DNA from: Bryobacterales bacterium
Lineage (GTDB): Bacteria > Acidobacteriota > Terriglobia > Bryobacterales > Bryobacteraceae
NCBI GenBank assembly: GCA_963716685.1
Contig: CAVQTR010000003.1
Span: 3,225,500 to 3,289,499, forward strand
Direction: 5' to 3'
DNA: 64,000 nt
The notes under the pieces were generated by a model, which saw nothing but the letters and a program-made list of their open reading frames with translations, did no database searches and was not told the origin of the DNA. Position 1 is the stretch's first letter; each line of letters begins with the position of its first letter. Below, one piece after another: positions 2,283 through 64,000 of the stretch. Made by a program: the position numbers and the translations under genes.

Positions 2283-4784
2283 TCACTGCGCTCCATCGGC
2301 CGCCGTGCGCACGGTCAGATAACGCCCGTCGCTGATCACCGTTTCGAGGCCTGATCGGTCGGTCCGCACGGTCCAGACATGCCGTTCCTCCAGGTTTTCC
2401 ACAGTCTGCCGGTGCGGATGCCCGTAGGAATTTTCAAAGCCGGCCGAGATCATCGCGAACGCCGGGTGCACCGCGTCGAGGAAGCCCGGCGTACTCGAAC
2501 TCCGGCTGCCGTGATGCCCCACTTTCAACACATCGGCACGTCGCACCAGATCGCCCGCCAGCAGTTCCTGCTCCACCTGCTTTTCCATGTCCCCGGTCAG
2601 CAGAAACGAGTGGCGGCCATACGCTAAACGAAGCACCAGCGAATCGTTGTTCTTCGGCGAATTCCCCGTCACGTAATCCGCAGAAGGAGCCAGCACCTGC
2701 ACGCTCGCCCCGCCGAAGGGAAACGGGCCTCCCCGCACCAGCGGCTTGACCTTTACTCCTCGGGCGCTCGCTTCCTCACGAAGCCGGTCCCAGGACGGAT
2801 ACGGCGGGGTCGCTCCGGTCCACAATTCCCGCACATCGAAATCCCGCAGGATTGCCGCAAGCCCGCCAATGTGATCTTCATGCGCGTGCGAAAGCGCCAC
2901 CACATCGATGTGCCGGATGGAGCGTGTCCACAGGTAAGGAGCCACCACGTCCTCCCCGACGTCCAGCCGGGTGTTCGCCGATTTTCCAAAACTCGGGATT
3001 CCCCCGCCATCCACCAGCATGATGCGGCCGTCCGGAAACGCGACCAGCAGGCTGTCGCCCTGCCCCACATCGATGGCCGTCACCTCCAGAGCGCGCGGCT
3101 GAATCACCGGCGGGAACGGATGAACCACCAGCACCACCAGCAACAGCAGCACTGCGGCTGCCGTGACCACCCGAACCGATACCCAGCGGAAGCGGATTGC
3201 CGCGGCCACCAGCGCGGCCGTAAATGCCAGTGCGAGCCACAGCGGCGGGTCCGGAATACGCCAGTTGGGCTCCCAGCGCGCATGCCACGCAACCGCTATC
3301 CGCGAAAGGTCCAGCAGCCACGCCGCAAGACCCGCGAGCAGCGTCGAGTTCGTAAAAACCGCAAGGAAGCCGACCGGCACCACGACACCCAGCAACGGCA
3401 CCGCAAACGCATTGGCCGAAAGACCCGAAAACGAGATGCGATGAAAGTAGATAGCCATCGGCAGCGCCAGCCCAATCTGAATCACCGCCGACGTCAGCAA
3501 CAGGTCGTAAAGATAGAATCCGAGGCGCATGGGCACCGTCACCGCCCACCTCGCCATCCGCGAGGGAAGCCGGGGCAGGAGCAGTTCCACGGTGTCCACC
3601 ACCAGCCGTAGTTCCAGACGGAAGTGGGCAACTCGCGGCGGCATCCGCAGGTCGCTTGTCTTGTCGCTCAGCTTGGCCAAACCAGCGGTGAGCGGCCCCG
3701 AAGTTTTCTCGATGATGGGAACCACCATCGCGGCGATCAGCGCCACCGAAAGAAAGGAAAGCTGGAAACCCGGATCAAACATCTGCTCGGGGTCGGCAAG
3801 GATAAAGATCAGCGCCACCGCCGCGATCACGTTGAGCATGCGGCCCTGACGGTAGAAGCATCGCCCGATCGCAAACAGAGTCATTCCCGCCGCTGAGCGC
3901 ACCACTGGCGCCTGCCAGCCCGTAACAAACGCGTATAGCCACCCCGCAATCAGGGTTGCCAAGGTGGCCCAGTCGCGCGGCACGAAGCAGATGCGCAGCA
4001 GGAACAGCAGGAAAGCCGCCAGTACCGCCACGTGACTGCCGGAGATCACCAGCGCATGAAAGGTCCCGGTGGATCGAAAGTCTTCCGTCCACACGCGCTC
4101 CATGCCGCTGGTCTCCCCAATCAGAACCGCCTGCATCATCGCGATGTTGTACGCGCTCGGCTGATAGAGTTCCTCGATGCGCGCGAGCGCGGCCATGCGA
4201 ATGGCGTAAATGGCCGCCCAAAATCGCGATCCGCATCGCCCAGGCAAAACCGTTGCCTGAGCGCCGGCCGGGGTCGAAGCGGTCCAGTAGATGTACTGTC
4301 GCGCCAGAAAATGCGTGTAGTCGAAAGCTCCGGGATTCCGGTAGTTGTGTGGAACGCGCGTTTTCGCCGGAAACTCCACCAGCTGCCCGTAACGAAACGC
4401 CGGGGCCGATTCACCCTCGCGCAGATACCAGTTCACCCGCGCGCGCGCCTGCGGCGCCATTTCCAGAGTGAACTGTTCGCGCTCGCGCGCCAGCACCGCC
4501 GGCTCCACCACGCAGCCCGAAAGCAGTACCTGTTCACCGTCGACTGTGTCGAGTTCCGGGGCCGCTTCAGGACGGTGCGCCAGCATCACCAAAGCCCCGC
4601 AGGAGAACATCGCAAGCAGCACACAGGCGCCTGCCAGACGCTGTGAAAATCGCAGCGCGACGAGGCCGAGCAGCGCAAACGCGGCCGTCACGCACCACAG
4701 CTCGCCCGACTGAAACGGCGCAACACGCGGCAGCAGAATGCCGCACGCCACAGCAGCCAAAGGCGCGATCAGCGGTTCCCGCAC
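2283..4784 (-). CDS. comEC: DNA internalization competence protein ComEC/Rec2 (polytopic membrane domain plus C-terminal metallo-beta-lactamase fold)
   Basis: 833-aa ORF. It has an N-terminal multi-TM region with a DUF4131/competence domain, and a C-terminal HxHxDH-type MBL motif (SHAHEDHIGG ... VGHHGS). Confidence 0.8.
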   Translation of the reverse strand: MREPLIAPLAAVACGILLPRVAPFQSGELWCVTAAFALLGLVALRFSQRLAGACVLLAMFSCGALVMLAHRPEAAPELDTVDGEQVLLSGCVVEPAVLAREREQFTLEMAPQARARVNWYLREGESAPAFRYGQLVEFPAKTRVPHNYRNPGAFDYTHFLARQYIYWTASTPAGAQATVLPGRCGSRFWAAIYAIRMAALARIEELYQPSAYNIAMMQAVLIGETSGMERVWTEDFRSTGTFHALVISGSHVAVLAAFLLFLLRICFVPRDWATLATLIAGWLYAFVTGWQAPVVRSAAGMTLFAIGRCFYRQGRMLNVIAAVALIFILADPEQMFDPGFQLSFLSVALIAAMVVPIIEKTSGPLTAGLAKLSDKTSDLRMPPRVAHFRLELRLVVDTVELLLPRLPSRMARWAVTVPMRLGFYLYDLLLTSAVIQIGLALPMAIYFHRISFSGLSANAFAVPLLGVVVPVGFLAVFTNSTLLAGLAAWLLDLSRIAVAWHARWEPNWRIPDPPLWLALAFTAALVAAAIRFRWVSVRVVTAAAVLLLLVVLVVHPFPPVIQPRALEVTAIDVGQGDSLLVAFPDGRIMLVDGGGIPSFGKSANTRLDVGEDVVAPYLWTRSIRHIDVVALSHAHEDHIGGLAAILRDFDVRELWTGATPPYPSWDRLREEASARGVKVKPLVRGGPFPFGGASVQVLAPSADYVTGNSPKNNDSLVLRLAYGRHSFLLTGDMEKQVEQELLAGDLVRRADVLKVGHHGSRSSSTPGFLDAVHPAFAMISAGFENSYGHPHRQTVENLEERHVWTVRTDRSGLETVISDGRYLTVRTAADGAQ

Positions 4785-10719: not shown

Positions 10720-11840
10720 TGCGCCTGAACCGTCTCGCTCTGCTGCTGACCGCTGCTGTTTTCGCTGCCACGCGCCCGCCGGATATTCCGTTTGAGAAGA
10801 TCACGCTCGATCTGGGCGCCAGCGAGAGCGCCGCCGTTGCCGACATCAATGGCGATGGCCGGCTCGACGTTGTCTCCGGCGAGAACTGGTATGAAGCCCC
10901 GAAGTGGACCAAACACCACTTCCGCGACCTGCCTTACACCAATTACTACATCGACAATTTCAGCGATCTGCCGCTCGATGTGAACGGCGATGGCGCCATC
11001 GACATCGTGGGCTGTTCCTGGTTTGGCAAGCGGCTGATCTGGTTTGAAAACCCCGGCAAAAAGGGTGGCCCGTGGAAAGAGCACCCCATCGATTCCGGGT
11101 TTAACATCGAGTTCGCGTTCCTTGTGGACATCGCAAGAAAGGGAGACCGGCGCGACGTTCTGCCGCAACCTGGCAATCAGGACTCGCCTCTCGCCTGGTA
11201 TGAAGCGCGCGACGGCGGCTTCACCAAACACATCGTCAGCAATCGCAGTTACGGCCACGGCATCGGCGCAGGCGACGTCAATAACGACGGCCGCACCGAC
11301 ATCCTGACCTCGAAAGGCTGGCTGGAAGCACCGGCCGACCCGCGCTCCCCCGCCGAATGGAAGTGGCACCCCGACTGGGACCTCGGCCAGACCGGTTTTC
11401 TCTTCGTCAACGATGTGAATGGGGACGGCCGCATGGACATCGTCACCTCATTGGCGCACGACTACGGCATTTTCTGGCTCGAACAGACCGCCGACGGCAA
11501 GTGGACCAAACACATGATCGACGACAGCTGGTCACAGGCGCACGCGGTCACCATGGTCGATCTGAACGGGGATGGCCGAATGGATTTCGTGACGGGCAAA
11601 CGCTTCTGGGCGCACAACGGCCATGATCCCGGAGGGCACGAACCGCTGGGCGTCTACTGGTACGAACACACCGCGGGCACGCCCATGGAGTGGGTTCGCC
11701 ATGTGGTGGATTACGGCACCCGCACCGGTGGGGGTATGCAAATCCCGGTGGCCGACCTGAACGGCGACGGCAAACCCGACTTCGTGGTCGCCGGCAAAGG
11801 CGGCCTGTTTCTGTTTCTCAACGAGCGGCCGAATCGCTGA
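10719..11840 (+). CDS. secreted FG-GAP/VCBS repeat beta-propeller protein
   Basis: ATG at 10719 overlaps the preceding TGA. Signal peptide MRLNRLALLLTAAVFAA. Repeated DxNGDGxxD(I/V)V motifs (DINGDGRLDVV, DVNGDGAIDIV, DVNNDGRTDIL, DVNGDGRMDIV, DLNGDGRMDFV, DLNGDGKPDFV). Confidence 0.7.
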   Translation: MRLNRLALLLTAAVFAATRPPDIPFEKITLDLGASESAAVADINGDGRLDVVSGENWYEAPKWTKHHFRDLPYTNYYIDNFSDLPLDVNGDGAIDIVGCSWFGKRLIWFENPGKKGGPWKEHPIDSGFNIEFAFLVDIARKGDRRDVLPQPGNQDSPLAWYEARDGGFTKHIVSNRSYGHGIGAGDVNNDGRTDILTSKGWLEAPADPRSPAEWKWHPDWDLGQTGFLFVNDVNGDGRMDIVTSLAHDYGIFWLEQTADGKWTKHMIDDSWSQAHAVTMVDLNGDGRMDFVTGKRFWAHNGHDPGGHEPLGVYWYEHTAGTPMEWVRHVVDYGTRTGGGMQIPVADLNGDGKPDFVVAGKGGLFLFLNERPNR

Positions 11841-11855
11841 CGGCCGGAAATCTCA

Positions 11856-13450
11856 TTACCCGGGCAGCAGAGCCCGAATCGTCTCGATGGTATCCGCTTC
11901 CGTGGCCGGTTTATCGAGCCGCCATCGCGCCATCCGGGGAAAGCGCACCGCAATGCCCGACCGGTGCCGCGGACTCTTCTGGATGCCTTCAAACGCCAGC
12001 TCAAAAACCAACTCCGGCTTCACCGACCGCACCGGCCCGAACTTCTCGATCGTGTTTCGTCTGACGAACGCATCCACCTTGCGAATCTCTTCGTCGGTCA
12101 GCCCCGAATAGGCTTTGGCGAAGGGCACCAGCGTGTCGCCGTCCCACACCCCAAACGTGTAATCGGTGAACAGACTGGCGCGGCGTCCACTTCCTGGCTG
12201 CGCATAGAGCAACACCGCATCGATCGAGAACGGTTCGATCTTCCACTTCCACCAATCGCCGCGGCGGCGCCCCACACGATAAGGCGATCCGCGGCGCTTC
12301 AGCATGAACCCTTCCACCCGGCGCTCGCGCGACTGCGGCGCGCAACTCCATCAGGCGCTCCCAGGATTCCGCCTCCACCACCGGCGAGAGCACCAGCCGG
12401 CCGCTGTCGCGCATCGACTCCACCAGCCCGGCGAGTTTCCCGCGGCGCTCTTCAATGGGCTCCTCGCGAATGTCGCGGCCTTCCCACTCCAGCAGATCGT
12501 AAGCCAGAATCACCACGGGCACATCCGCCAGAATCTTCGGCCCCAGCACTTTGCGCCCGATGCGCCGCTGCATCTGCGCAAACGGCAGCGGCTGTCCAGC
12601 CACCCACGGCAGAATTTCGCCATCGATCACCGTGCCCTCGGGCAGCAGCGCACCCATAGCCTCCAGTTCCGGGAAAGCGCTCCGTCACCAGTTCCTCGCC
12701 GCGCGACCAGATGAACGTCCGCCAGTTCCGCCGGATCAGCTGCGATCGGATGCCATCCCATTTCCATTCGATCTGCCACTCCGCGATGTCGCCCAGCTGC
12801 GCGATCTCGCCTTCGATCGGATAAGCGAGGAAGAACGGATAGGGCCGGCTCACATCCGCATCTTCGGCTTCGCTTCGCGATCAGCTGGGCGTAAAACTCG
12901 GGCGAAGGATGCCAGTCGCCCATCAACCGGTGAGAAATCACCGGAGCCGCGATGCCGCTCACCTGCGCCAGAGCGCGCACCACCAGACTTTGCGACACCC
13001 CCACGCGAAACGCGCCGGTGATCAGCTTGTTCCAGACGAACCGCTGCGGCTCGTCCATCTCCCGCCATGCATTTACGAGTGAATCGCGGCGCAGATCGTC
13101 GTTCCACCTCGCCAGCGGAAGCAGCCGCTCTTCCACCCAGTAATGCAGCGGCAGATCGGTGGTCTTCTCCGCGTCCGGCAGCAGCAGGGCAATCGTCTCC
13201 GCCAGGTCGCCCACCGCCTGATAGCACTCATCGAACATCCACCCCGGCACCTGCGGATTCTTCGATGGCCCACTCCACCAGCTTGCGGGTTTCGATCAGC
13301 CGCTTCGGGCGCCGCCCAATCAGAAAATGAATGGCCCAGACGGCGTCCTCCGGAGGAGCCGCGCTGAAGTAGGCCGTCAGAGCGTCGGTCTTCAGATTGG
13401 TTTTGGTGGTCTCGTCGAGCGCGGTGTACAGGTCCGCAAAAAGCCTTCAT
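11856..13450 (-). pseudogene. ATP-dependent DNA ligase (LigC-type, ligase-associated DNA damage response), reading frame broken at least 4 times
   Basis: Fragments spread over several frames: ligase N-terminal region (MKAF.ADLYTALDETT...), adenylation motif I (EWKWDGIR), the adenylation/OB domains, and the C-terminal motif (EGFMLKRRGSPY..GRR.GDWWKWK). One break is at an A5 run at 13439-13443, where A4 is expected. Confidence 0.7.
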
Positions 13451-55486: not shown

Positions 55487-55750
55487 TTATTTGCCGGGCT
55501 GGAGGAACTTCTTCGTCGCTTCGGACGGCGTCAGGATTTCGCCATCGATCAGCATGCGTCCGGTATAGCCGCCTCCCGCTTCAAACTCCCAGGCCACGTC
55601 GTGGCCTTCGCGGGCGAGCTTTGCCCATTTGGTGCGCTTGGCCGAATTCTGTTCCAGCCAGAAATTGCCGTCCGCTGTGGCTAAAGAGCGGAGTCTGGCG
55701 TGGCCGGTGCGGTTGGTCCACGTTTTCATGTCGTGGAGGTTGGGTGGCAC
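55487..55750 (-). CDS. small hypothetical protein
   Basis: 87-aa ORF (..MKTWTNRTGHARLRSLATADGNFWLEQNSAKRTKWAKLAREGHDVAWEFEAGGGYTGRMLIDGEIL..) directly upstream of arsM on the same strand. No recognised domain. Confidence 0.35.
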   Translation of the reverse strand: MPPNLHDMKTWTNRTGHARLRSLATADGNFWLEQNSAKRTKWAKLAREGHDVAWEFEAGGGYTGRMLIDGEILTPSEATKKFLQPGK

Positions 55751-56592
55751 TACTGACAGAGTAACGGCTGGGTGGGGCAGCAGCCCGCAGGCTTCGTGGC
55801 GCGAATGAAGGCGCTGAAGAACCTGCCTTCGACAGCCGGAGCCATGGCGTCGACGTCAACGCCCTGCCCGCTAAGAAAGGTTCTTGCATCTTCGATGCTG
55901 TAAACCCGGGTCGGTTCGATTTCGACAGCATCAAAACCCGCTCCGGCCAGTTTGGCGACATACTCATCCTGGCCGAGCGCCCCGGCAATGCAGCCGACCC
56001 ACAGCAGCATGTTCCTGCGCACTTCGGCAGGGACTTCGCCGCGTGTGACAACATCCGACACGGCGAAACGCCCACCCGGTTTCAGGACGCGGAACGCCTC
56101 ACGGAGCACGCGATCTTTATCGGCGGACAGGTTAATCACGCAATTGCTGATGACCACATCGACCGAGTTGTCCGGCAGCGGGATCTGCTCGATCTCCCCT
56201 TTCAGGAATTCGACATTCTCCACCCCGGCTTTGCGCTGGTTCTCGCGGGCAAGGGCCAGCATTTCATCGGTCATATCGAGGCCCCAGGCTTTGCCAGCCG
56301 GGCCGACACGGCGGGCTGACAGCAACACGTCGATGCCGCCGCCGGAGCCGAGATCGAGCACGGTTTCGCCAGCTTTCAATTCGGCGAGGGCCGTGGGGTT
56401 GCCACAGCCGAGTGACGCCAGCACCGCTGCTTCCGGGACCGTGCCGGTTTGCGTGGCATCGTACAGGTTTGCGGTGATCGGGTCACAGCAGTTATCGAGA
56501 GCGGCCCCCGCGCCACAGCAGGAGCTGCCGCCCGTGTTGACACGCAGCGCCGCCTGACCGTATTTCTCTTTGACGATGTCTTTGAGTTCCAT
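55750..56592 (-). CDS. arsM: arsenite S-adenosylmethionine methyltransferase
   Basis: Start at the internal ATG at 56592 (MELKDIVKEKYGQAALRV...). Conserved Cys pairs (SSCCG...CC), SAM motif VLDLGSGGGID, ..VISNCVINL... 280 aa. Confidence 0.8.
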   Translation of the reverse strand: MELKDIVKEKYGQAALRVNTGGSSCCGAGAALDNCCDPITANLYDATQTGTVPEAAVLASLGCGNPTALAELKAGETVLDLGSGGGIDVLLSARRVGPAGKAWGLDMTDEMLALARENQRKAGVENVEFLKGEIEQIPLPDNSVDVVISNCVINLSADKDRVLREAFRVLKPGGRFAVSDVVTRGEVPAEVRRNMLLWVGCIAGALGQDEYVAKLAGAGFDAVEIEPTRVYSIEDARTFLSGQGVDVDAMAPAVEGRFFSAFIRATKPAGCCPTQPLLCQ

Positions 56593-56600
56593 CTCTTTAT

Positions 56601-56948
56601 TTACTGACACAGGCGAAAAATCGCTTTTGGCTGAATCGCTTTGTTTCGGGTGCAGCACTCGGCATAGAGGAAGCCCAAAAGCACCTGCAAGGCTTCGGCA
56701 TTCGCCGAGTACCAAAGATACGTTCCTTCGCGGCGCACTTTCACGAGGTCTTCGTTTTTCAACTTGTCCAGGTGATGCGAGAGCGTCGAGCCAGGGATAC
56801 TGAGTTCCGTCCCGATTTCGTTGACGACCATGCCCTCGGGATGCGCTGAGAGCAGCACCCGCATGATACGCAGGCGCGGGCCGGTTCCCATGGCGGAGAA
56901 CATATCCGCAAAACGGATGATTTCGTCTTCGGTTGGTTTCGCAGGCAC
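56601..56948 (-). CDS. arsR: ArsR family metalloregulator
   Basis: HTH region (RLRIMRVLLSAHPEGMVVNEIGTELSIPGSTLSHHLDKLKNEDLV) and a C-terminal CC pair. It lies 8 nt upstream of arsM. Confidence 0.8.
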   Translation of the reverse strand: MPAKPTEDEIIRFADMFSAMGTGPRLRIMRVLLSAHPEGMVVNEIGTELSIPGSTLSHHLDKLKNEDLVKVRREGTYLWYSANAEALQVLLGFLYAECCTRNKAIQPKAIFRLCQ

Positions 56949-57048
56949 GCTTCGTTGATTCTACCTCTATCGAAATATCGAAGCAAGCCTTTTCCGCGTT
57001 CCACAAGCGAAGGCAGCGCGTTGCCGCGGAGTGGAATAATCAGGGGAT

Positions 57049-58574: not shown

Positions 58575-59018
58575 TCAGCCGGCTGCCGCGAATATCTTCG
58601 CCAATCTCTGTTGGCCGCCACGGCCGAGAATGTCCGCAAGAGTATAGCGGTTCAGAGAGGCGATAAACGCATCAAGTGCTTCCTTCAGCATTCCTCTAAG
58701 CGCGCAGACCGGCGCGATCTTACATGTGTTGGTTTTGTGGTCGAAGCACTCCACCAAACGCATGTTGGGTTCAGCGGTTCGAACCACCTCACCCAATCGG
58801 ACCAGAGCCGGTTCACGAAGCAGTGTAATGCCTCCGGAACGTCCCGGGTGGATTTTAACGTATTCGTGTTCGGCCAGCGTCTGGACCACCCGCACCAGGT
58901 GATGCTTCGAAATCTGATACGCTTCGCTGACGTCCTGCGTTCGGACTACGCGATTTGGATGGGCGCCCAGATAGACCAGCACGCGAAGCGCGTAATCTGC
59001 ATGTAAGCTTAACTGCAT
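58575..59018 (-). CDS. Rrf2 family transcriptional regulator (NsrR/IscR-like, three-Cys cluster ligands)
   Basis: MQLSLHADYALRVLVYLG HTH. Cys at CFDHKTNTCKIAPVC, the Fe-S ligand pattern of NsrR/IscR. Confidence 0.8.
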   Translation of the reverse strand: MQLSLHADYALRVLVYLGAHPNRVVRTQDVSEAYQISKHHLVRVVQTLAEHEYVKIHPGRSGGITLLREPALVRLGEVVRTAEPNMRLVECFDHKTNTCKIAPVCALRGMLKEALDAFIASLNRYTLADILGRGGQQRLAKIFAAAG

Positions 59019-59027
59019 TGCATCATG

Positions 59028-59983
59028 TTAAACCGAGGGCACAAAAGCATCGGCATAGATATCGCGTGATGCCGCCCCGGCCAGAAAGATCCTTTTGCGG
59101 AGGAGCTTGACGATCTCAGGATCGCCATACACAAAGGCGCGCCATCCGCTGAGCTGAGGCAGCCGTTCCAGCAGCACCTTTTCGATTGAGCCGGACGCAA
59201 TCTCTCCATCGCTGTTCTTCAGAACGCATGGTGTGTACTCCACATTCGGATAACGGGCCGCAATATCCCGAAGTTCTTCCCGCAGGTACAGGCCGCCCTC
59301 ATCCACTGCCCCATGAAACAGCGAGATCGGACCCGTATGACCCTGCCTAAGTGCGTCAAGCAGGATTCCATAGAGAGGCGCAAGACCGGTACCCGTGCCA
59401 GCCAGAAGCAGCGGCTGGTCCGGGCTGCCCGGCAGGTAAAAACAATCGCCCGAGGGTCCCTGGATCTGAACTCTGTCGCCTACCCGCGCGATGTCATGAA
59501 GCCAGCCGCTCATTTTACCCCCGGCGATGCGACGCACATGGATCTGGATTTCGAACCCGCCCGGCAAATTGGCAATCGAGTAACTACGGGCCAGCGTTCC
59601 GTCCAGCAGCAGCGTTATATATTGACCCGCCCGGAAATCGACCCTGGCGTCGCATCGGAGCCATACTGCGAGCACGCCTGCGCTCAACTGCTCGAAGGCT
59701 GTAATCGTCGCGCCGAACCGTGCGTCCGTTCCAACGCGGGCAACAGTCAAGTCTGAATCCGGCGTGCACACGCACGGTAGAAAATAGCCCTGCGCCGCCC
59801 ATGAAGGCTTAAGCCCGGCCTGGGCTTTTGCGGGCACGATTCCCTCGACCGCTCGCATCATGCACGAACCGCAAGTGCCGGCCATGCATGAATGCGGCGC
59901 CTCTACACCTCCGCCAAGCAGCACATCGAGAACAGACCTTCCAGGCGCGATTGAGTAAGAGCGCCCGTCAAAATCGCGGTCAT
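59028..59983 (-). CDS. 2Fe-2S ferredoxin domain fused to FAD/NAD(P) reductase (FNR-like), 5' homopolymer frameshift
   Basis: Cx4CxxC...C (CMAGTCGSC...LPCVC), then an FNR module (RSYSIAN, GTGLAP). The listed ORF starts at GTG 59924 with only 12 residues before the first Cys. The ATG at 59983 (MTAI) joins the ferredoxin N-terminus (FDGRSYSIAPGRSVLDVLLGG) if the T4 run at 59970-59973 is read as T5. Confidence 0.7.
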
Positions 59984-59991
59984 AAAATCAG

Positions 59992-60375
59992 TCAGCGGTT
60001 CAGGACGTCTGCGCGGGTGGATTTGGCAATCGCGGCAACCTGCGCGATCAGGTTCGCGGGAACGTTCAAGTCAGTGAGGCTTTGACCGAGCAGTTCCACC
60101 ACAGCGTCGAAATGTGAATCGTTCAGGCCCATCGCCACGAGACGTGCATGGGCCGCTCGCATGTCCTTGCCGGTATAGGACACAGGACCTCCAAACGCCA
60201 TCGTTAGAAAACCTTTTTGCTTCGCGATCTGGCGGTCCATATCGACATCGTCAAAGAATCTGCTGATACGGTCGTCCGCAAGTACCTTTCGATAGAAGAC
60301 GTCAACCGCGGCGTTCACTGCCGCTTCACCGCCGATTTGTTCGTAGAGAGATTGAGTGAACGCCATAATATGCAT
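59992..60375 (-). CDS. truncated haemoglobin, group I (trHbN-like 2/2 globin)
   Basis: 127 aa. SLYEQIGGEAAVNAAVDVFYRKVLADDRISRFF ... AHARL proximal-His region, typical of 2/2 Hb. It is 8 nt upstream of the reductase gene. Confidence 0.8.
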   Translation of the reverse strand: MHIMAFTQSLYEQIGGEAAVNAAVDVFYRKVLADDRISRFFDDVDMDRQIAKQKGFLTMAFGGPVSYTGKDMRAAHARLVAMGLNDSHFDAVVELLGQSLTDLNVPANLIAQVAAIAKSTRADVLNR

Positions 60376-60411: not shown

Positions 60412-62226
60412 TCACGCTTCCTGATTCGCCGATACCTTGCGCGCCGATCGGGAAAACGGAAACCGCAACTCAAGCACCCTTTCGCGATCGCGTTCCTCCT
60501 GGAGATTCCGAATACGCGCGCCCAGCAAATCCCCCAGAGCTACGACGCCTTCCAGCAGTCCGGTGTTCCGATCCACAACCGGCATCCGGGTCAAACCCGT
60601 TTCGGCCATGCGCATGACCACAACACGCAAGGGCTCATCCGGATGCGCGGTCACGGCCTCCCGAACCACTGCGCCCAGACTTTGACTTCCCGCATCGCCG
60701 TCGATAATTTCGCGCAGTTGCCCGCGCGTCACCACACCGATGAGTTTCTTCTTGTCGTCTACTACCGGGTATAAATGTTGTCCGTGTTTCGTCTGCCGCT
60801 GCAGCACAACAGGCCGCAGTTCCTCTACCGTCGTCTGCGCGGGGAGCACAGCAACCTTCGTTCGCATTACCTCACGAACAAACATAATCTCCAGCGGGTC
60901 GATGGCGTACTCACGCGTGAGGTGAAATCCTCGCCGTGCCACCTTCTCAGTAAGAATAGACCGTTTCAGCAGCAAGACTGTCGTTCCGTGGGCCAGCATG
61001 GCGGCGACCAGCAGGGGCAGCAGCACGTTGATGTCGTGTGTCAGTTCAAGCGCGAACAGCACTGCGGTAAATGGTGCGCGCATTGTACCGCCCAACATGG
61101 CGCCCATACTGACCAGAGGCCAGAACCCTGCCCCTTCCTGTGGCAGAAAGGCTGCTTCCATTCCGCCCAGAGCAGCGCCCATCATGAGTAATGGCGCCAG
61201 CACACCGCCCGACGTTCCCGACCCCAGCGAGATGATCCAGATTGTTGATTTCACCAGGAGTACACCTGCAATCACGGTCGCTGCGACATTTCCCTGCAAT
61301 AACTCTCGAATCGTGTCGTATCCGACTCCGAGCGCCTGGGGGAAAATCATACCGCCCAGTCCAACGAACAACGCACCGATTGACGGCCACCACATCCAGT
61401 GGATGGGCAATTTCATGAACCCATCCTCGGCCGCATAGACGCCCCATGTCAGTAATGCTGAGAGTGCACCGGCCAGCAGGCCCGCAATCGCGCAGCCCAG
61501 GAGTCCCTCGGGTCCAATGAAGATCGCATGGTGGGGTACCGGGAACAAAGGCCCGAGGCCGAGAATGTAACGCCGGCCCGCGCCTGCAGCCGCGCTCGCC
61601 AGAGCCACCGGGATGGCGCTCCGCGGCTTCCACTCGAACAACAGCAGTTCAACCGCGAGCATAACTGCGGCGACAGGTGTCGCGAAGGTTGCCGACATTC
61701 CCGCAGCCGCTCCCGCTACGAGTAGAGTTTTTCGTTCCGATGCCGTCAGATGGAAGAACTGCGCGACGATCGAGCCAATCGCGCCGCCGGTCATGATGAT
61801 CGGACCTTCCGCACCGAACGGTCCGCCCGAGCCGATCGATATCGCCGCTGACAGTGGTTTCAGGATCGCCAGCCGTGGCTGCACCCTGCTTCCGTGAATC
61901 AGGATTGATTCCAGTGCCTCGGGAATCCCGTGGCCGCGAATCCGCTCAGAACCGTACCGCGCCATAAACCCGATGGCAAGTGCTCCGCCCACCGGCACAA
62001 GAACCGCCCACCAGCCCAAATGGTTTCCCGCCGGAGAGTTGAGCACAGTGCTGATCGTTCCGAAGTAGAAGAGGTTCGTGAAGAACGCAATCAGCCGCAA
62101 GAGTGCCCATGCGACGCAGGTAGCGATCAGGCCGATCACGATTGCCAGCATCGAAATCGGGATCACGCGCGCCGTGGTCGTGAAATCCCCTAAGCCTGCA
62201 GCACGGTCTTTATAATTGTGTTTCAT
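60412..62226 (-). CDS. ClC family chloride channel/H+-Cl- exchanger with C-terminal CBS pair
   Basis: GSGIP-like (GHGIPEA), GKEGP-like (GAEGPII) and GxFxP (GGMIFP) selectivity motifs. Two CBS domains at the C-terminus. 604 aa. Confidence 0.85.
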   Translation of the reverse strand: MKHNYKDRAAGLGDFTTTARVIPISMLAIVIGLIATCVAWALLRLIAFFTNLFYFGTISTVLNSPAGNHLGWWAVLVPVGGALAIGFMARYGSERIRGHGIPEALESILIHGSRVQPRLAILKPLSAAISIGSGGPFGAEGPIIMTGGAIGSIVAQFFHLTASERKTLLVAGAAAGMSATFATPVAAVMLAVELLLFEWKPRSAIPVALASAAAGAGRRYILGLGPLFPVPHHAIFIGPEGLLGCAIAGLLAGALSALLTWGVYAAEDGFMKLPIHWMWWPSIGALFVGLGGMIFPQALGVGYDTIRELLQGNVAATVIAGVLLVKSTIWIISLGSGTSGGVLAPLLMMGAALGGMEAAFLPQEGAGFWPLVSMGAMLGGTMRAPFTAVLFALELTHDINVLLPLLVAAMLAHGTTVLLLKRSILTEKVARRGFHLTREYAIDPLEIMFVREVMRTKVAVLPAQTTVEELRPVVLQRQTKHGQHLYPVVDDKKKLIGVVTRGQLREIIDGDAGSQSLGAVVREAVTAHPDEPLRVVVMRMAETGLTRMPVVDRNTGLLEGVVALGDLLGARIRNLQEERDRERVLELRFPFSRSARKVSANQEA

Positions 62227-62666
62227 GCGCGGTGGCCTTTCCGGCTGTGTCGCAGCATGGACTGAAGTGCTCTCGCCACCTCCGGGCCAGAGCGTTCCAG
62301 TTCCTCACGGTGAGCTACAGCCAATTTGCGGAGAATTGTCTTTCCCTCCGGCGTGAGCCGAATCCACACTTCGCGTCTGTCTTCCGGACCCGGGCTGCGG
62401 GCTATGGCGCCGGCGGACTCAAGCCGATTCACCAACTCGACAGTGCTGTGGTGCTGAATAAAGAGCCTCGATGCCAGTTCGCCGATCGTAGGCTTGACTT
62501 CGGCCGGCAGCCCCTGCACCGCCAGCAATAGTTGATGCTGTTGCGGTTCGATGCCGACACTCTTTGCGGCCGCCTCGCTGAAATGAAGAAACTGACGGAT
62601 CTGCCGCCGGAACTCCGCCAGATCCCTATACTGCTCCGGAGTCAAATCAATGTTCTCATCGACCAC
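62223..62666 (-). CDS. MarR family transcriptional regulator
   Basis: Winged-helix region (QHQLLLAVQGLPAEVKPTIGELASRLFIQHHSTVELVNRLESAGAIAR). 4-nt overlap with the ClC gene. Divergent from the TIR/NB-ARC gene. Confidence 0.8.
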   Translation of the reverse strand: MVDENIDLTPEQYRDLAEFRRQIRQFLHFSEAAAKSVGIEPQQHQLLLAVQGLPAEVKPTIGELASRLFIQHHSTVELVNRLESAGAIARSPGPEDRREVWIRLTPEGKTILRKLAVAHREELERSGPEVARALQSMLRHSRKGHRA

Positions 62667-62882
62667 AAATACATCGTATCACGACATATCTACTGGCAGA
62701 GCCGGCCGCCATCCATCGGGACCTCTGCGTGAGGCGGCAACCTGGTGGACGGCAGTACACCGCGGATCGGATTTCGAGGTTTCGGATGACCGTGTCTACG
62801 TTGAACCAGTCCGCACCGTAATTACAACGCCTACCGGGCCACCTTTGACTGATATTCTGTAGCTCCAAGCTAATGTCCCGGT

Positions 62883-64000
62883 ATGCCCGCTGCTGACTAC
62901 GACCTTTTCCTGAGTCATGCGTGGGCGGATGGGGACCGCCCAGGGCAGATCGCCGATGCGCTAAGGACGGCTGGGCTCCGGGTGTGGTTCGACGCGAACG
63001 AGATCAACGACTTCGACAGCATAACTCGCGCCGTCAACACCGGCCTCGCGAAGGCTAAGGCCCTGCTGGCCTACTTTTCCAAAACCTACCCCACCAGGCG
63101 CGCGTGCCAGTGGGAACTTACGGCCGCCTTCCTCGCCGGGCAAGCCGAGGGCGACCCTCGACGCAGGGTGTTGGTAATCAACCCGGAAACGACTTCCGCC
63201 CACATCCATCCCGTTCAGCTCCGCGACGCGAAGTTCCGCCCGGTGCCCAGGGACGATGCCGATCTCAGGGAATTGGTGCAGGCCGTCGTCAGCCACCTGG
63301 AGGGACTCGAGGGGCCGTTGGCCAACATCCAATCCGTGTCCGCCCCCCAGTGGCACCCTTTGAGCCCGGCGGGTTCCACCCGCTTCGTAGGCCGCATCGA
63401 GAAAATGTGGGAGCTGCACTCCGTGCTGAGTGCCGGCGACGTGGCGCAAGTTACCGGTGCCGCCGCTGCCACCGGAGGCATCGGGCAGGTTCACGGACTC
63501 GCCGGCGTGGGCAAGTCGCTCCTCGCCGAAGAGTACGCCTTGCGTTTCGGCTCGGCTTACCCCGGCGGCATCTTTTGGCTCCGAGCGTATGGTAACGACG
63601 CCACCTCGGCCGCCGGCGATGAAGCGCGCGAGGCACAGCGTGCGGCCCAGGTACGGCAGATTGCGGAAAGGGTCATACCTGCGGAAAGGCTCGGACTTCC
63701 CATTCACGCGCTGACGACAGACCAGATTGAAGGAGCGCTCGGCCGCGAGTTGGCGAAAAGGGAAAAGCGCTGCCTTTGGGTGGTCGACGACGTCCCGGAT
63801 GGCCTCGAACCTCAGGCCCTCCGCCGCTGGTTAGCGCCCGACACCATCGCCCGCACGCTCATAACGACCCGCAGTCGCGCGTACGGCACTCTCGCGCGGC
63901 CGGTGGACCTCTCCGTTCTGCACCCCGATGAGGCCTTCCAACTGCTCACTTCACGGCGGCCCCCGGCTAACAACCAAGAAGAAGATGCGGCACGCGCACT
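62883..64000 (+). CDS. TIR domain / NB-ARC (STAND NTPase) protein, N-terminal 372 aa only; gene continues beyond the window end (absent from the supplied ORF list because no stop is reached)
   Basis: ATG at 62883 after an in-frame TAA at 62871. TIR motifs DYDLFLSHAWADG ... RVWFD ... RACQWELTAAF. P-loop GLAGVGKSLLAEEYA. Walker B CLWVVDDV. LITTRSRAY is the hhhTTR/RNBS-B motif of NB-ARC. Confidence 0.75.
   Translation, partial: MPAADYDLFLSHAWADGDRPGQIADALRTAGLRVWFDANEINDFDSITRAVNTGLAKAKALLAYFSKTYPTRRACQWELTAAFLAGQAEGDPRRRVLVINPETTSAHIHPVQLRDAKFRPVPRDDADLRELVQAVVSHLEGLEGPLANIQSVSAPQWHPLSPAGSTRFVGRIEKMWELHSVLSAGDVAQVTGAAAATGGIGQVHGLAGVGKSLLAEEYALRFGSAYPGGIFWLRAYGNDATSAAGDEAREAQRAAQVRQIAERVIPAERLGLPIHALTTDQIEGALGRELAKREKRCLWVVDDVPDGLEPQALRRWLAPDTIARTLITTRSRAYGTLARPVDLSVLHPDEAFQLLTSRRPPANNQEEDAARA

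Follow-up and report, generated by a model that had tools for sequence, protein, structure and literature searches.

Proteins that combine a TIR domain with a nucleotide-binding domain and TPR repeats (TIR-NB-TPR) have been explicitly described in bacteria and fungi (Johanndrees et al. PMC9806590; Lapin et al. PMC9153377), and Dyrka et al. (bioRxiv 10.1101/2020.01.06.895854) described 'all-in-one' bacterial NLRs that begin with a TIR domain. The Avs (AVAST) systems use the same logic, in that one gene encodes an NAD+-degrading effector at the N-terminus, a STAND NTPase in the centre and a TPR-type sensor at the C-terminus; those with an N-terminal NADase deplete NAD+ once the C-terminal repeats sense a phage protein, the precedents being Avs5 (SIR2 NADase) and Avs2 (NIR NADase) (PMC12931631; bioRxiv 10.64898/2026.09.04.749371). 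A survey of TIR domains regards those embedded in Avs and those of standalone proteins as effectors that deplete NAD+ (bioRxiv 10.64898/2025.12.03.692087). Here we analyse a stretch of 64,000 nucleotides from a Bryobacterales bacterium (assembly GCA_963716685.1, contig CAVQTR010000003.1, positions 3,225,500 to 3,289,499), referred to below as the window. At its very end, starting at position 62883, lies the 5' part of a gene encoding a TIR domain fused to an NB-ARC NTPase. This gene, called the 62883 gene or TIR gene in the following, is a further member of the large, already described TIR-NB-ARC-TPR family.

The gene opens with an ATG at positions 62883-62885 of the plus strand, with an in-frame TAA four codons upstream, and its frame remains free of stop codons for 372 codons, to base 63998 of the window. 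Given a stop frequency of 0.0296 per codon calculated from the base composition of the window (approximately one stop per 34 codons), the probability of 372 open codons is 1.4e-5. The GC content at codon positions 1, 2 and 3 is 0.70, 0.51 and 0.76, respectively, which looks like the pattern of a coding sequence. The gene is missing from the list of open reading frames (ORFs) that accompanied the sequence because ORFs running off the source were not reported. An earlier note on this DNA, written from the sequence letters, had claimed an unlisted plus-strand gene without a stop running off the window end, and the length of the open frame bears this out. Every TIR and NB-ARC motif that the note had quoted from the translation could be located in the frame. 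Its identification of a TIR/NB-ARC (STAND) NLR-like gene cut by the window edge is likewise supported, by a structure model matching the plant protein RPP1, by conservation across 44 sequences and by profile searches, in which TIR_2 and NB-ARC both score above their Pfam cutoffs (NB-ARC marginally). The resulting annotation is a partial coding sequence running from 62883 past 64000, named TIR domain-containing NB-ARC/STAND NTPase.

The TIR domain matches Pfam PF13676 (TIR_2) over profile positions 2-121 of 122, with an E value of 1.3e-16 and a score of 61.7 bits against a cutoff of 28. Its nearest relatives of known structure in a PDB sequence search are PdTIR (3h16), BtTir (7uxr), TcpB/BtpA and AbTir (E 7e-9 to 2e-5). 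An AlphaFold2 model has predicted local distance difference test (pLDDT) values mostly of 86-98 over residues 1-110, and in a Foldseek search its TIR part matched PdTIR, AbTir, TcpB and RUN1 at a probability of 1.0 and target-normalised template-modelling scores of 0.6-0.77. Conservation was assessed in an alignment of 44 sequences, comprising the 62883 product and 43 database relatives, in which Ser11, Asp37 and Glu78 of the TIR domain are invariant. The conserved glutamate of AbTir ('WTNYE'), PdTIR and BtTir falls in the same alignment column as Glu78, and it is this conserved glutamate that is catalytic in TIR NADases (PMC9806590). The presence of Glu78 suggests that the domain is an enzymatic TIR of the NADase type, and NAD+ cleavage is predicted. 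By sequence the domain is nearer to bacterial TIRs (PdTIR, AbTir, TcpB) than to plant TIRs. The tryptophan of the AbTir 'WxxxE' motif is replaced by Ala74 in the 62883 product, where a tryptophan adjoins the glutamate instead (W77-E78). PdTIR, AbTir (7uwg/7uxu), BtTir, TcpB/BtpA and ThsB are TIR-only proteins, coiled-coil-TIR proteins or parts of two-gene systems, whereas the TIR of the 62883 product is fused to a STAND switch.

The remainder of the fragment matches Pfam PF00931 (NB-ARC) over residues 202-365, with a score of 24.6 bits against a cutoff of 23.5 (E 1.8e-5). NB-ARC is above the cutoff in five of six full-length relatives, at 24.0-28.9 bits, and just under it, at 23.1 bits, in the sixth (L008). 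The P-loop is preceded by the sequence FVGRIE, which we take to be the hhGRExE-type motif typical of STAND NTPases (compare Leipe et al. 2004). The Walker motifs and the 'TTR' motif are all present (Table 1), the latter being listed among the NB-ARC motifs of the plant proteins known as TNPs (PMC9806590). The AlphaFold2 model of the whole fragment, computed on the relatives' alignment, has a pLDDT of 88 and a predicted template-modelling score of 0.86. Its best Foldseek match over both domains is the resistosome of the plant TIR-NLR RPP1 (E 1.7e-8), followed for the NTPase part by NRC4, ZAR1 and CED-4, the E values of the four ranging from 1.7e-8 to 1.3e-4. Apaf-1 appeared as a weak PDB sequence match in the P-loop region. 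The identification of TIR and NB-ARC in the 62883 product is solid. The ARC and winged-helix subdomains and the C-terminal part of the protein lie beyond base 64000. Downstream of the fragment, the family consensus contains 'LGYHALALDV' and 'VHTLVSR', which may be read as the equivalents of a GLPL-type motif and of the MHD-type histidine of the winged helix.

Table 1. Features at the 62883 locus (nucleotide positions in the 64,000-nt window; residues of the 62883 product)
Feature	Position	Strand	Residues	Evidence or remark
Partial TIR-NB-ARC(-TPR) STAND/NLR-like gene, 5' part, 372 codons	62883-64000	+		Open frame, profiles, homologues; no stop before window end
TIR domain	62892-63302	+	4-140 (TIR_2 match 9-131)	Pfam, PDB sequence matches, Foldseek
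DYDLFLSHAW	62895-62924	+	5-14	
RVWFD	62979-62993	+	33-37	
CQWEL	63105-63119	+	75-79	
Glu78 codon, predicted catalytic Glu of TIR NADase site	63114-63116	+	78	Within CQWEL; invariant in 44 sequences; alignment to known TIRs
NB-ARC, N-terminal part (first two thirds)	63378-64000	+	166-372 (Pfam match 202-365)	PF00931, Foldseek
FVGRIE	63384-63401	+	168-173	Shortly upstream of P-loop; F168 invariant; V169, G170, R171 at least 90% conserved
Walker A/P-loop, GLAGVGKS	63495-63518	+	205-212	G208, G210, K211 invariant (44 sequences)
Walker B, CLWVVDD	63771-63791	+	297-303	L298, W299, D302, D303 invariant (44 sequences)
RNBS-B/sensor-1 'TTR' (hhhToR) motif, LITTRS	63858-63875	+	326-331	L326, T328, R330 invariant (44 sequences)
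Spacer between MarR gene and TIR gene, 216 bp	62667-62882			Presumed promoter region of both genes
MarR gene	62223-62666	-		Divergent from TIR gene
ClC channel gene with CBS domains	60412-62226	-		4-nt overlap with MarR gene

Homologues align with the fragment from end to end, at up to 70% identity and an E value of 2.4e-165. The nearest relatives found in a search of 5.8 billion proteins, GTDB species-representative genomes and JGI metagenomes are 68-70% identical, and the closest ones come mostly from metagenome-assembled genomes (MAGs) of Acidobacteriaceae. More distant relatives occur in Solirubrobacterales, in proteobacterial and other MAGs, in Streptomyces and in archaea of the ANME/Methanoperedens type. 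A HMMER search of 1.84 billion cluster representatives gave 624 clusters (50% identity) at E <= 1e-30; nearly all of the best 150 of these match the full 1-371 span, with typical lengths of 840-1400 residues. The relatives in archaeal MAGs (L012, L015, L020, L021 and L037, from Methanoperedens, Argoarchaeum, Methanosarcinales and Methanogaster) are 44-50% identical to the 62883 product and hence nearer to it than the Streptomyces copies (~40-44%), which suggests transfer between bacteria and archaea.

The earlier note had expected a C-terminal sensor domain (TPR, WD40 or other) beyond the window, and what follows the NB-ARC domain can be read in the relatives. In all of the six close relatives searched with Pfam, TIR and NB-ARC are followed by TPR_10/TPR_12 repeats, four to seven or more in number, with E values down to 3e-119. 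For a more precise count, a profile made from one 42-residue unit was run on 23 intact relatives of 693-1174 residues (loci L002-L102). Units of this kind were found in every one of them, 2-13 per protein; the array begins near residue 600 in nearly all cases, and the number of units tracks protein length. At the DNA level the repeats can be close copies of each other: locus L003 contains 7.3 tandem copies of a 126-bp unit with 83% matches (11808-12726), and L081 contains 9.7 copies with 72% matches (2659-3875). 'Highly internally conserved' TPRs of fungal and bacterial NLRs have been linked to rapid sensor diversification and repeat reshuffling (bioRxiv 10.1101/2020.01.06.895854), and the near-identical 42-residue units of the present family match this pattern. 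Judged by the lengths of the intact relatives, the 372 visible codons would represent an estimated 30-55% of the whole gene, which should continue for another 300-800 codons, with a TPR array expected to start about 0.7 kb past the end of the window.

In these respects there is no substantive difference between the 62883 family and the all-in-one NLRs of bacteria and fungi. The order of TIR, NB-ARC and TPR is the same, as are the internally conserved 42-residue TPR units of variable copy number, and the taxa overlap (actinobacteria, aggregate-forming archaea). The word 'Acidobacteria' has 0 occurrences in the text of the preprint by Dyrka et al., and a modest value of the present gene is to place Acidobacteriaceae among the carriers of TIR-NB-ARC-TPR NLR-like genes; otherwise it adds one incomplete example, with the informative sensor domain outside the data. 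The plant TIR-NLRs RPP1 and Roq1 have the catalytic glutamate, P-loop, Walker B and TTR motifs in common with the 62883 product, but RPP1 is only 14-17% identical to it in sequence, and both plant proteins carry leucine-rich repeats where the 62883 relatives carry TPRs. The plant TNPs (formerly XTNX) have, by description, the full TIR-NB-ARC-TPR order of the 62883 family, but their similarity to bacterial proteins rests on the nucleotide-binding domain only (PMC9806590). Compared with Avs/AVAST, the 62883 family is not embedded in defence islands, and its NB-ARC belongs to another STAND clade than Avs5, which has an nSTAND3 subdomain (PMC12931631). As a working analogy, the 62883 product may nevertheless function like an Avs-type or a plant TIR-NLR-type switch. 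A tractable bacterial representative could link bacterial STAND immunity with the biology of plant TIR-NLRs and TNPs.

We consider it probable, though well short of certain, that the 62883 gene encodes a single-chain sensor and executioner with a TIR-NB-ARC-TPR architecture, which is triggered by a phage or another mobile element to cleave NAD+ and thereby brings about abortive infection. At rest, the protein would be monomeric and kept inactive by the NB-ARC domain, with nucleotide bound, and by the C-terminal repeats. A ligand, most likely a protein of a phage or other mobile element, would bind to the array of near-identical 42-residue TPR units. The NB-ARC domain would then exchange or bind nucleotide, involving Lys211, Asp302/Asp303 and the sensor Arg330, and the protein would oligomerise. 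The oligomer would gather the N-terminal TIR domains into composite active sites around Glu78, and cleavage of NAD+ would arrest or kill the cell before the invader can spread. This proposal builds on the open frame, both domains, their conserved motifs, the fold and the TPR arrays of the relatives; a TPR array in the 62883 product itself, its NADase activity, oligomerisation, trigger and immune role are predictions. The label chosen in the earlier note, a candidate immune or abortive-infection sensor, can reasonably be applied.

Several points weigh against an antiphage function, or against reading the gene with this degree of detail. An estimated 500-800 C-terminal residues of the product lie beyond the window and are hence unread, and the NB-ARC score is only marginally above the Pfam cutoff. 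Our literature searches found no experimental test of any bacterial TIR-NB-ARC-TPR protein. The models for Avs/AVAST types 1-5 (PADLOC-DB v2) match neither the fragment (E <= 1) nor four full-length relatives (E <= 1e-3). A bNACHT assignment fared no better: Pfam returns NB-ARC, AAA_16 and AAA_22 only, and the PADLOC listings contain no NACHT-type model either. The comparison with catalogues of bacterial NLRs (bNACHT/Avs) proposed in the earlier note was negative for the fragment and, in PADLOC, also for the four full-length relatives. The genomic surroundings of the relatives point in the same direction. PADLOC, Pfam and NCBIfam profiles were run on 80 neighbouring ORFs at 12 loci of the Acidobacteriaceae type. 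The ORFs are mostly housekeeping genes (metK, kdpA, tpiA, kdsA, phoH and others), and there is no enrichment of defence genes at the 12 loci, the only matches being isolated, single-member ones to AbiEi, HNH, SIR2-like and PDC models. The Streptomyces relatives (L053, L056, L057, L059, L061, L067 and others) have common flanks that include coaE (dephospho-CoA kinase) and uvrB, and occupy a fixed position in the core chromosome, unlike the scattered copies of Acidobacteriaceae; such a position is atypical for mobile defence genes.

Some of these points would be accommodated by a different trigger. In this alternative, the same protein with the same switch is a sensor for regulated cell death or conflict that responds to an endogenous, developmental, stress or inter-bacterial cue, as has been suggested for NLR-like proteins in prokaryotes that are multicellular or form aggregates (bioRxiv 10.1101/2020.01.06.895854). 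The housekeeping flanks and the lack of defence islands, the conserved core locus near coaE and uvrB in Streptomyces and the failure of any known antiphage STAND model to match all agree with it, as does the distribution of the family, since Streptomyces, Solirubrobacterales, Acidobacteriaceae and aggregate-forming ANME/Methanoperedens are the kind of taxa highlighted in the same preprint. However, the variable copy number of near-identical TPR units points to a rapidly diversifying sensor of the non-self type, the Acidobacteriaceae copies have no synteny and have insertion sequence (IS) elements nearby, and all experimentally studied bacterial proteins with an effector-STAND-repeat layout that we found in the literature are antiviral (PMC12931631; bioRxiv 10.64898/2026.09.04.749371). 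On balance we regard a non-phage trigger as rather unlikely. There is a smaller chance still that the clade as a whole represents a non-Avs, chromosomally resident type of TIR-NLR whose TPR array detects something other than a virus, for instance an endogenous stress signal, a peptide ligand or an inter-bacterial toxin; this possibility arises because the clade is common to soil Acidobacteriaceae, Streptomyces (at a fixed site) and ANME/Methanoperedens and matches no catalogued antiphage STAND protein. If it were true, no other prokaryotic protein would come as near in function to the conserved plant TNPs, which likewise have no known role. A literature search for 'TIR-STAND' together with phage found nothing.

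Both the antiphage reading and the alternative just discussed assume that sensor and effector reside in one chain, and the neighbourhoods of the relatives agree with this. We searched 80 related genome loci by tblastn, using as queries the TIR gene itself and seven of its neighbours in the window (the MarR, ClC, globin, reductase, Rrf2, GH43 and methyltransferase genes), and found no homologue of any window neighbour within 10 kb. All-against-all clustering of the flanking ORFs revealed no partner gene conserved across taxa; genes recur only among Streptomyces loci that are mutually syntenic. The TIR-NB-ARC-TPR gene is a single-gene unit without a conserved partner, which fits a self-contained sensor and effector. 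The earlier note had considered the location outside an obvious defence island unusual, but this did not hold up: the relatives lack synteny, and their flanks consist mostly of housekeeping genes with some IS elements. A gene for a macro-domain/O-acetyl-ADP-ribose deacetylase lies <=5 kb from one of the 12 relatives. This is a single occurrence; ADP-ribose-processing enzymes are relevant to the products of TIR domains.

The lack of a partner also bears on the question of what the TIR domain produces. Instead of depleting NAD+, it could generate a signal, namely a messenger of the cyclic ADP-ribose type that activates a separate effector encoded elsewhere, as in Thoeris and in plant TIR signalling. 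The only PADLOC models that match the protein do so in its TIR part (PDC-S66 and ThsB), the ThsB matches being weak (E 1e-6 to 6e-6), and TIRs of different kingdoms can employ this catalytic glutamate to produce signalling nucleotides (PMC9806590; bioRxiv 10.64898/2025.12.03.692087). Against this reading, no neighbour is conserved at the 80 genome loci and none recurs at the 12 profile-scanned loci; moreover, a survey of Thoeris systems sets Avs-embedded and standalone TIRs aside as NAD+ depleters (bioRxiv 10.64898/2025.12.03.692087). We consider a signalling TIR improbable.

Assignment of the gene to two further named systems was also tried. Thoeris, which needs an adjacent ThsA-type effector gene, was rejected because neither the 80 genome loci nor the 12 profile-scanned loci show a conserved neighbour, the downstream side of the window copy lying past base 64000. 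The FxSxx-COOH peptide-maturation system came into consideration through the NCBIfam equivalog model NF040586, which describes its TPR component. This model is collinear with the NB-ARC and TPR portion of the 62883 family, to which the family adds the N-terminal TIR. The cutoff is 300 bits; the fragment, for which the first 173 positions of the 830-position profile are available, reaches 61 bits, while the relatives L003, L002 and L053 score 356.7, 286.3 and 104 bits, respectively. Nevertheless, neither an FxSxx-COOH precursor nor its radical SAM/SPASM maturase (FxsA/FxsB type) recurs among the top 25 of 168 families at the 12 loci, where single-locus cases could be hidden, and no such partner is present among ten ORFs around the Streptomyces relative L053. 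Membership was rejected on these grounds. The match is accounted for by the shared NB-ARC-TPR module, and the TIR fusion makes the protein self-contained, so that we can give hardly any credence to a role in peptide maturation. By the tests run, the 62883 product falls outside the Avs, bNACHT, Thoeris and FxS families. Automatic annotation may mis-name the family, as L003 (10001-12916) lies above the NF040586 cutoff without having FxS-system neighbours.

A final alternative is that the copy in the window is decayed or truncated, interrupted somewhere past base 64000 and non-functional. Many close relatives do have interrupted frames, with similarity resuming in another frame. This is the case at genome loci L011, L014, L017, L029, L034, L069, L080, L009 and L010 and in contigs of short-read metagenomes including L105, L106, L132/L134 and L145, and such interruptions explain why the family is represented in databases by many short 'proteins' of 270-650 residues. 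They may reflect genuine pseudogenes or else errors made in assembly or sequencing. The interrupted genome loci come mostly from MAGs, for which frameshifts by error are plausible, and among 28 short-read metagenome contigs there are 14 intact ORFs (693-1174 residues) and eight that run off still open vs ~5 that are clearly interrupted. In the 62883 gene itself, the 372 visible codons are intact, can be aligned with the relatives over their whole length and retain all of the invariant residues. Decay of this copy is very unlikely in our view. The eight contigs that end in an open frame often do so at lengths within or near the repeat region.

The base composition of the gene offers a weak hint of acquisition or foreign origin. 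Its GC content over 62883-64000 is 0.657, which places it at the 99th percentile among windows of equal size (mean 0.617, standard deviation 0.022), and the adjacent stretch with the MarR, ClC and globin genes is mostly below the window average (0.55-0.60). Among the 80 flanking ORFs at the 12 loci there are five transposases, three of IS110 and two of IS4. The high GC content and the IS110/IS4 elements near relatives are compatible with a mobile accessory gene. There is no paralogue of the TIR gene within the window (tblastn), and no tRNA was found near it.

As the earlier note had stated, the gene is divergent from a MarR gene and lies beside a ClC transporter gene; the former is found across the 216-bp spacer and the latter overlaps the MarR gene by 4 nt (Table 1). 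Because of this overlap, the MarR and ClC/CBS genes probably form one operon. Database look-ups of the MarR and ClC proteins by exact sequence gave no match. No match to the sigma-70 consensus was found in the spacer, which contains only short, chance-level repeats. Beyond the ClC gene, a minus-strand cluster (58575-60375) encodes an Rrf2-family regulator, a 2Fe-2S/FAD/NAD (Fer2-FAD-NAD) reductase and a bacterial truncated globin, and looks like a module for nitrosative or oxidative stress. Further upstream there are also a GH43-like hydrolase and an ArsR/methyltransferase pair. In the region of this pair (55750-57006, minus strand), a gene for an ArsR-type helix-turn-helix protein (56601-56948) overlaps the 5' part of a listed ORF of 418 residues, in which the S-adenosylmethionine-dependent methyltransferase domain is found only from residue 206. 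The listed ORF is probably over-extended, with the true methyltransferase, which may be read as ArsM-like, starting downstream of the ArsR gene.

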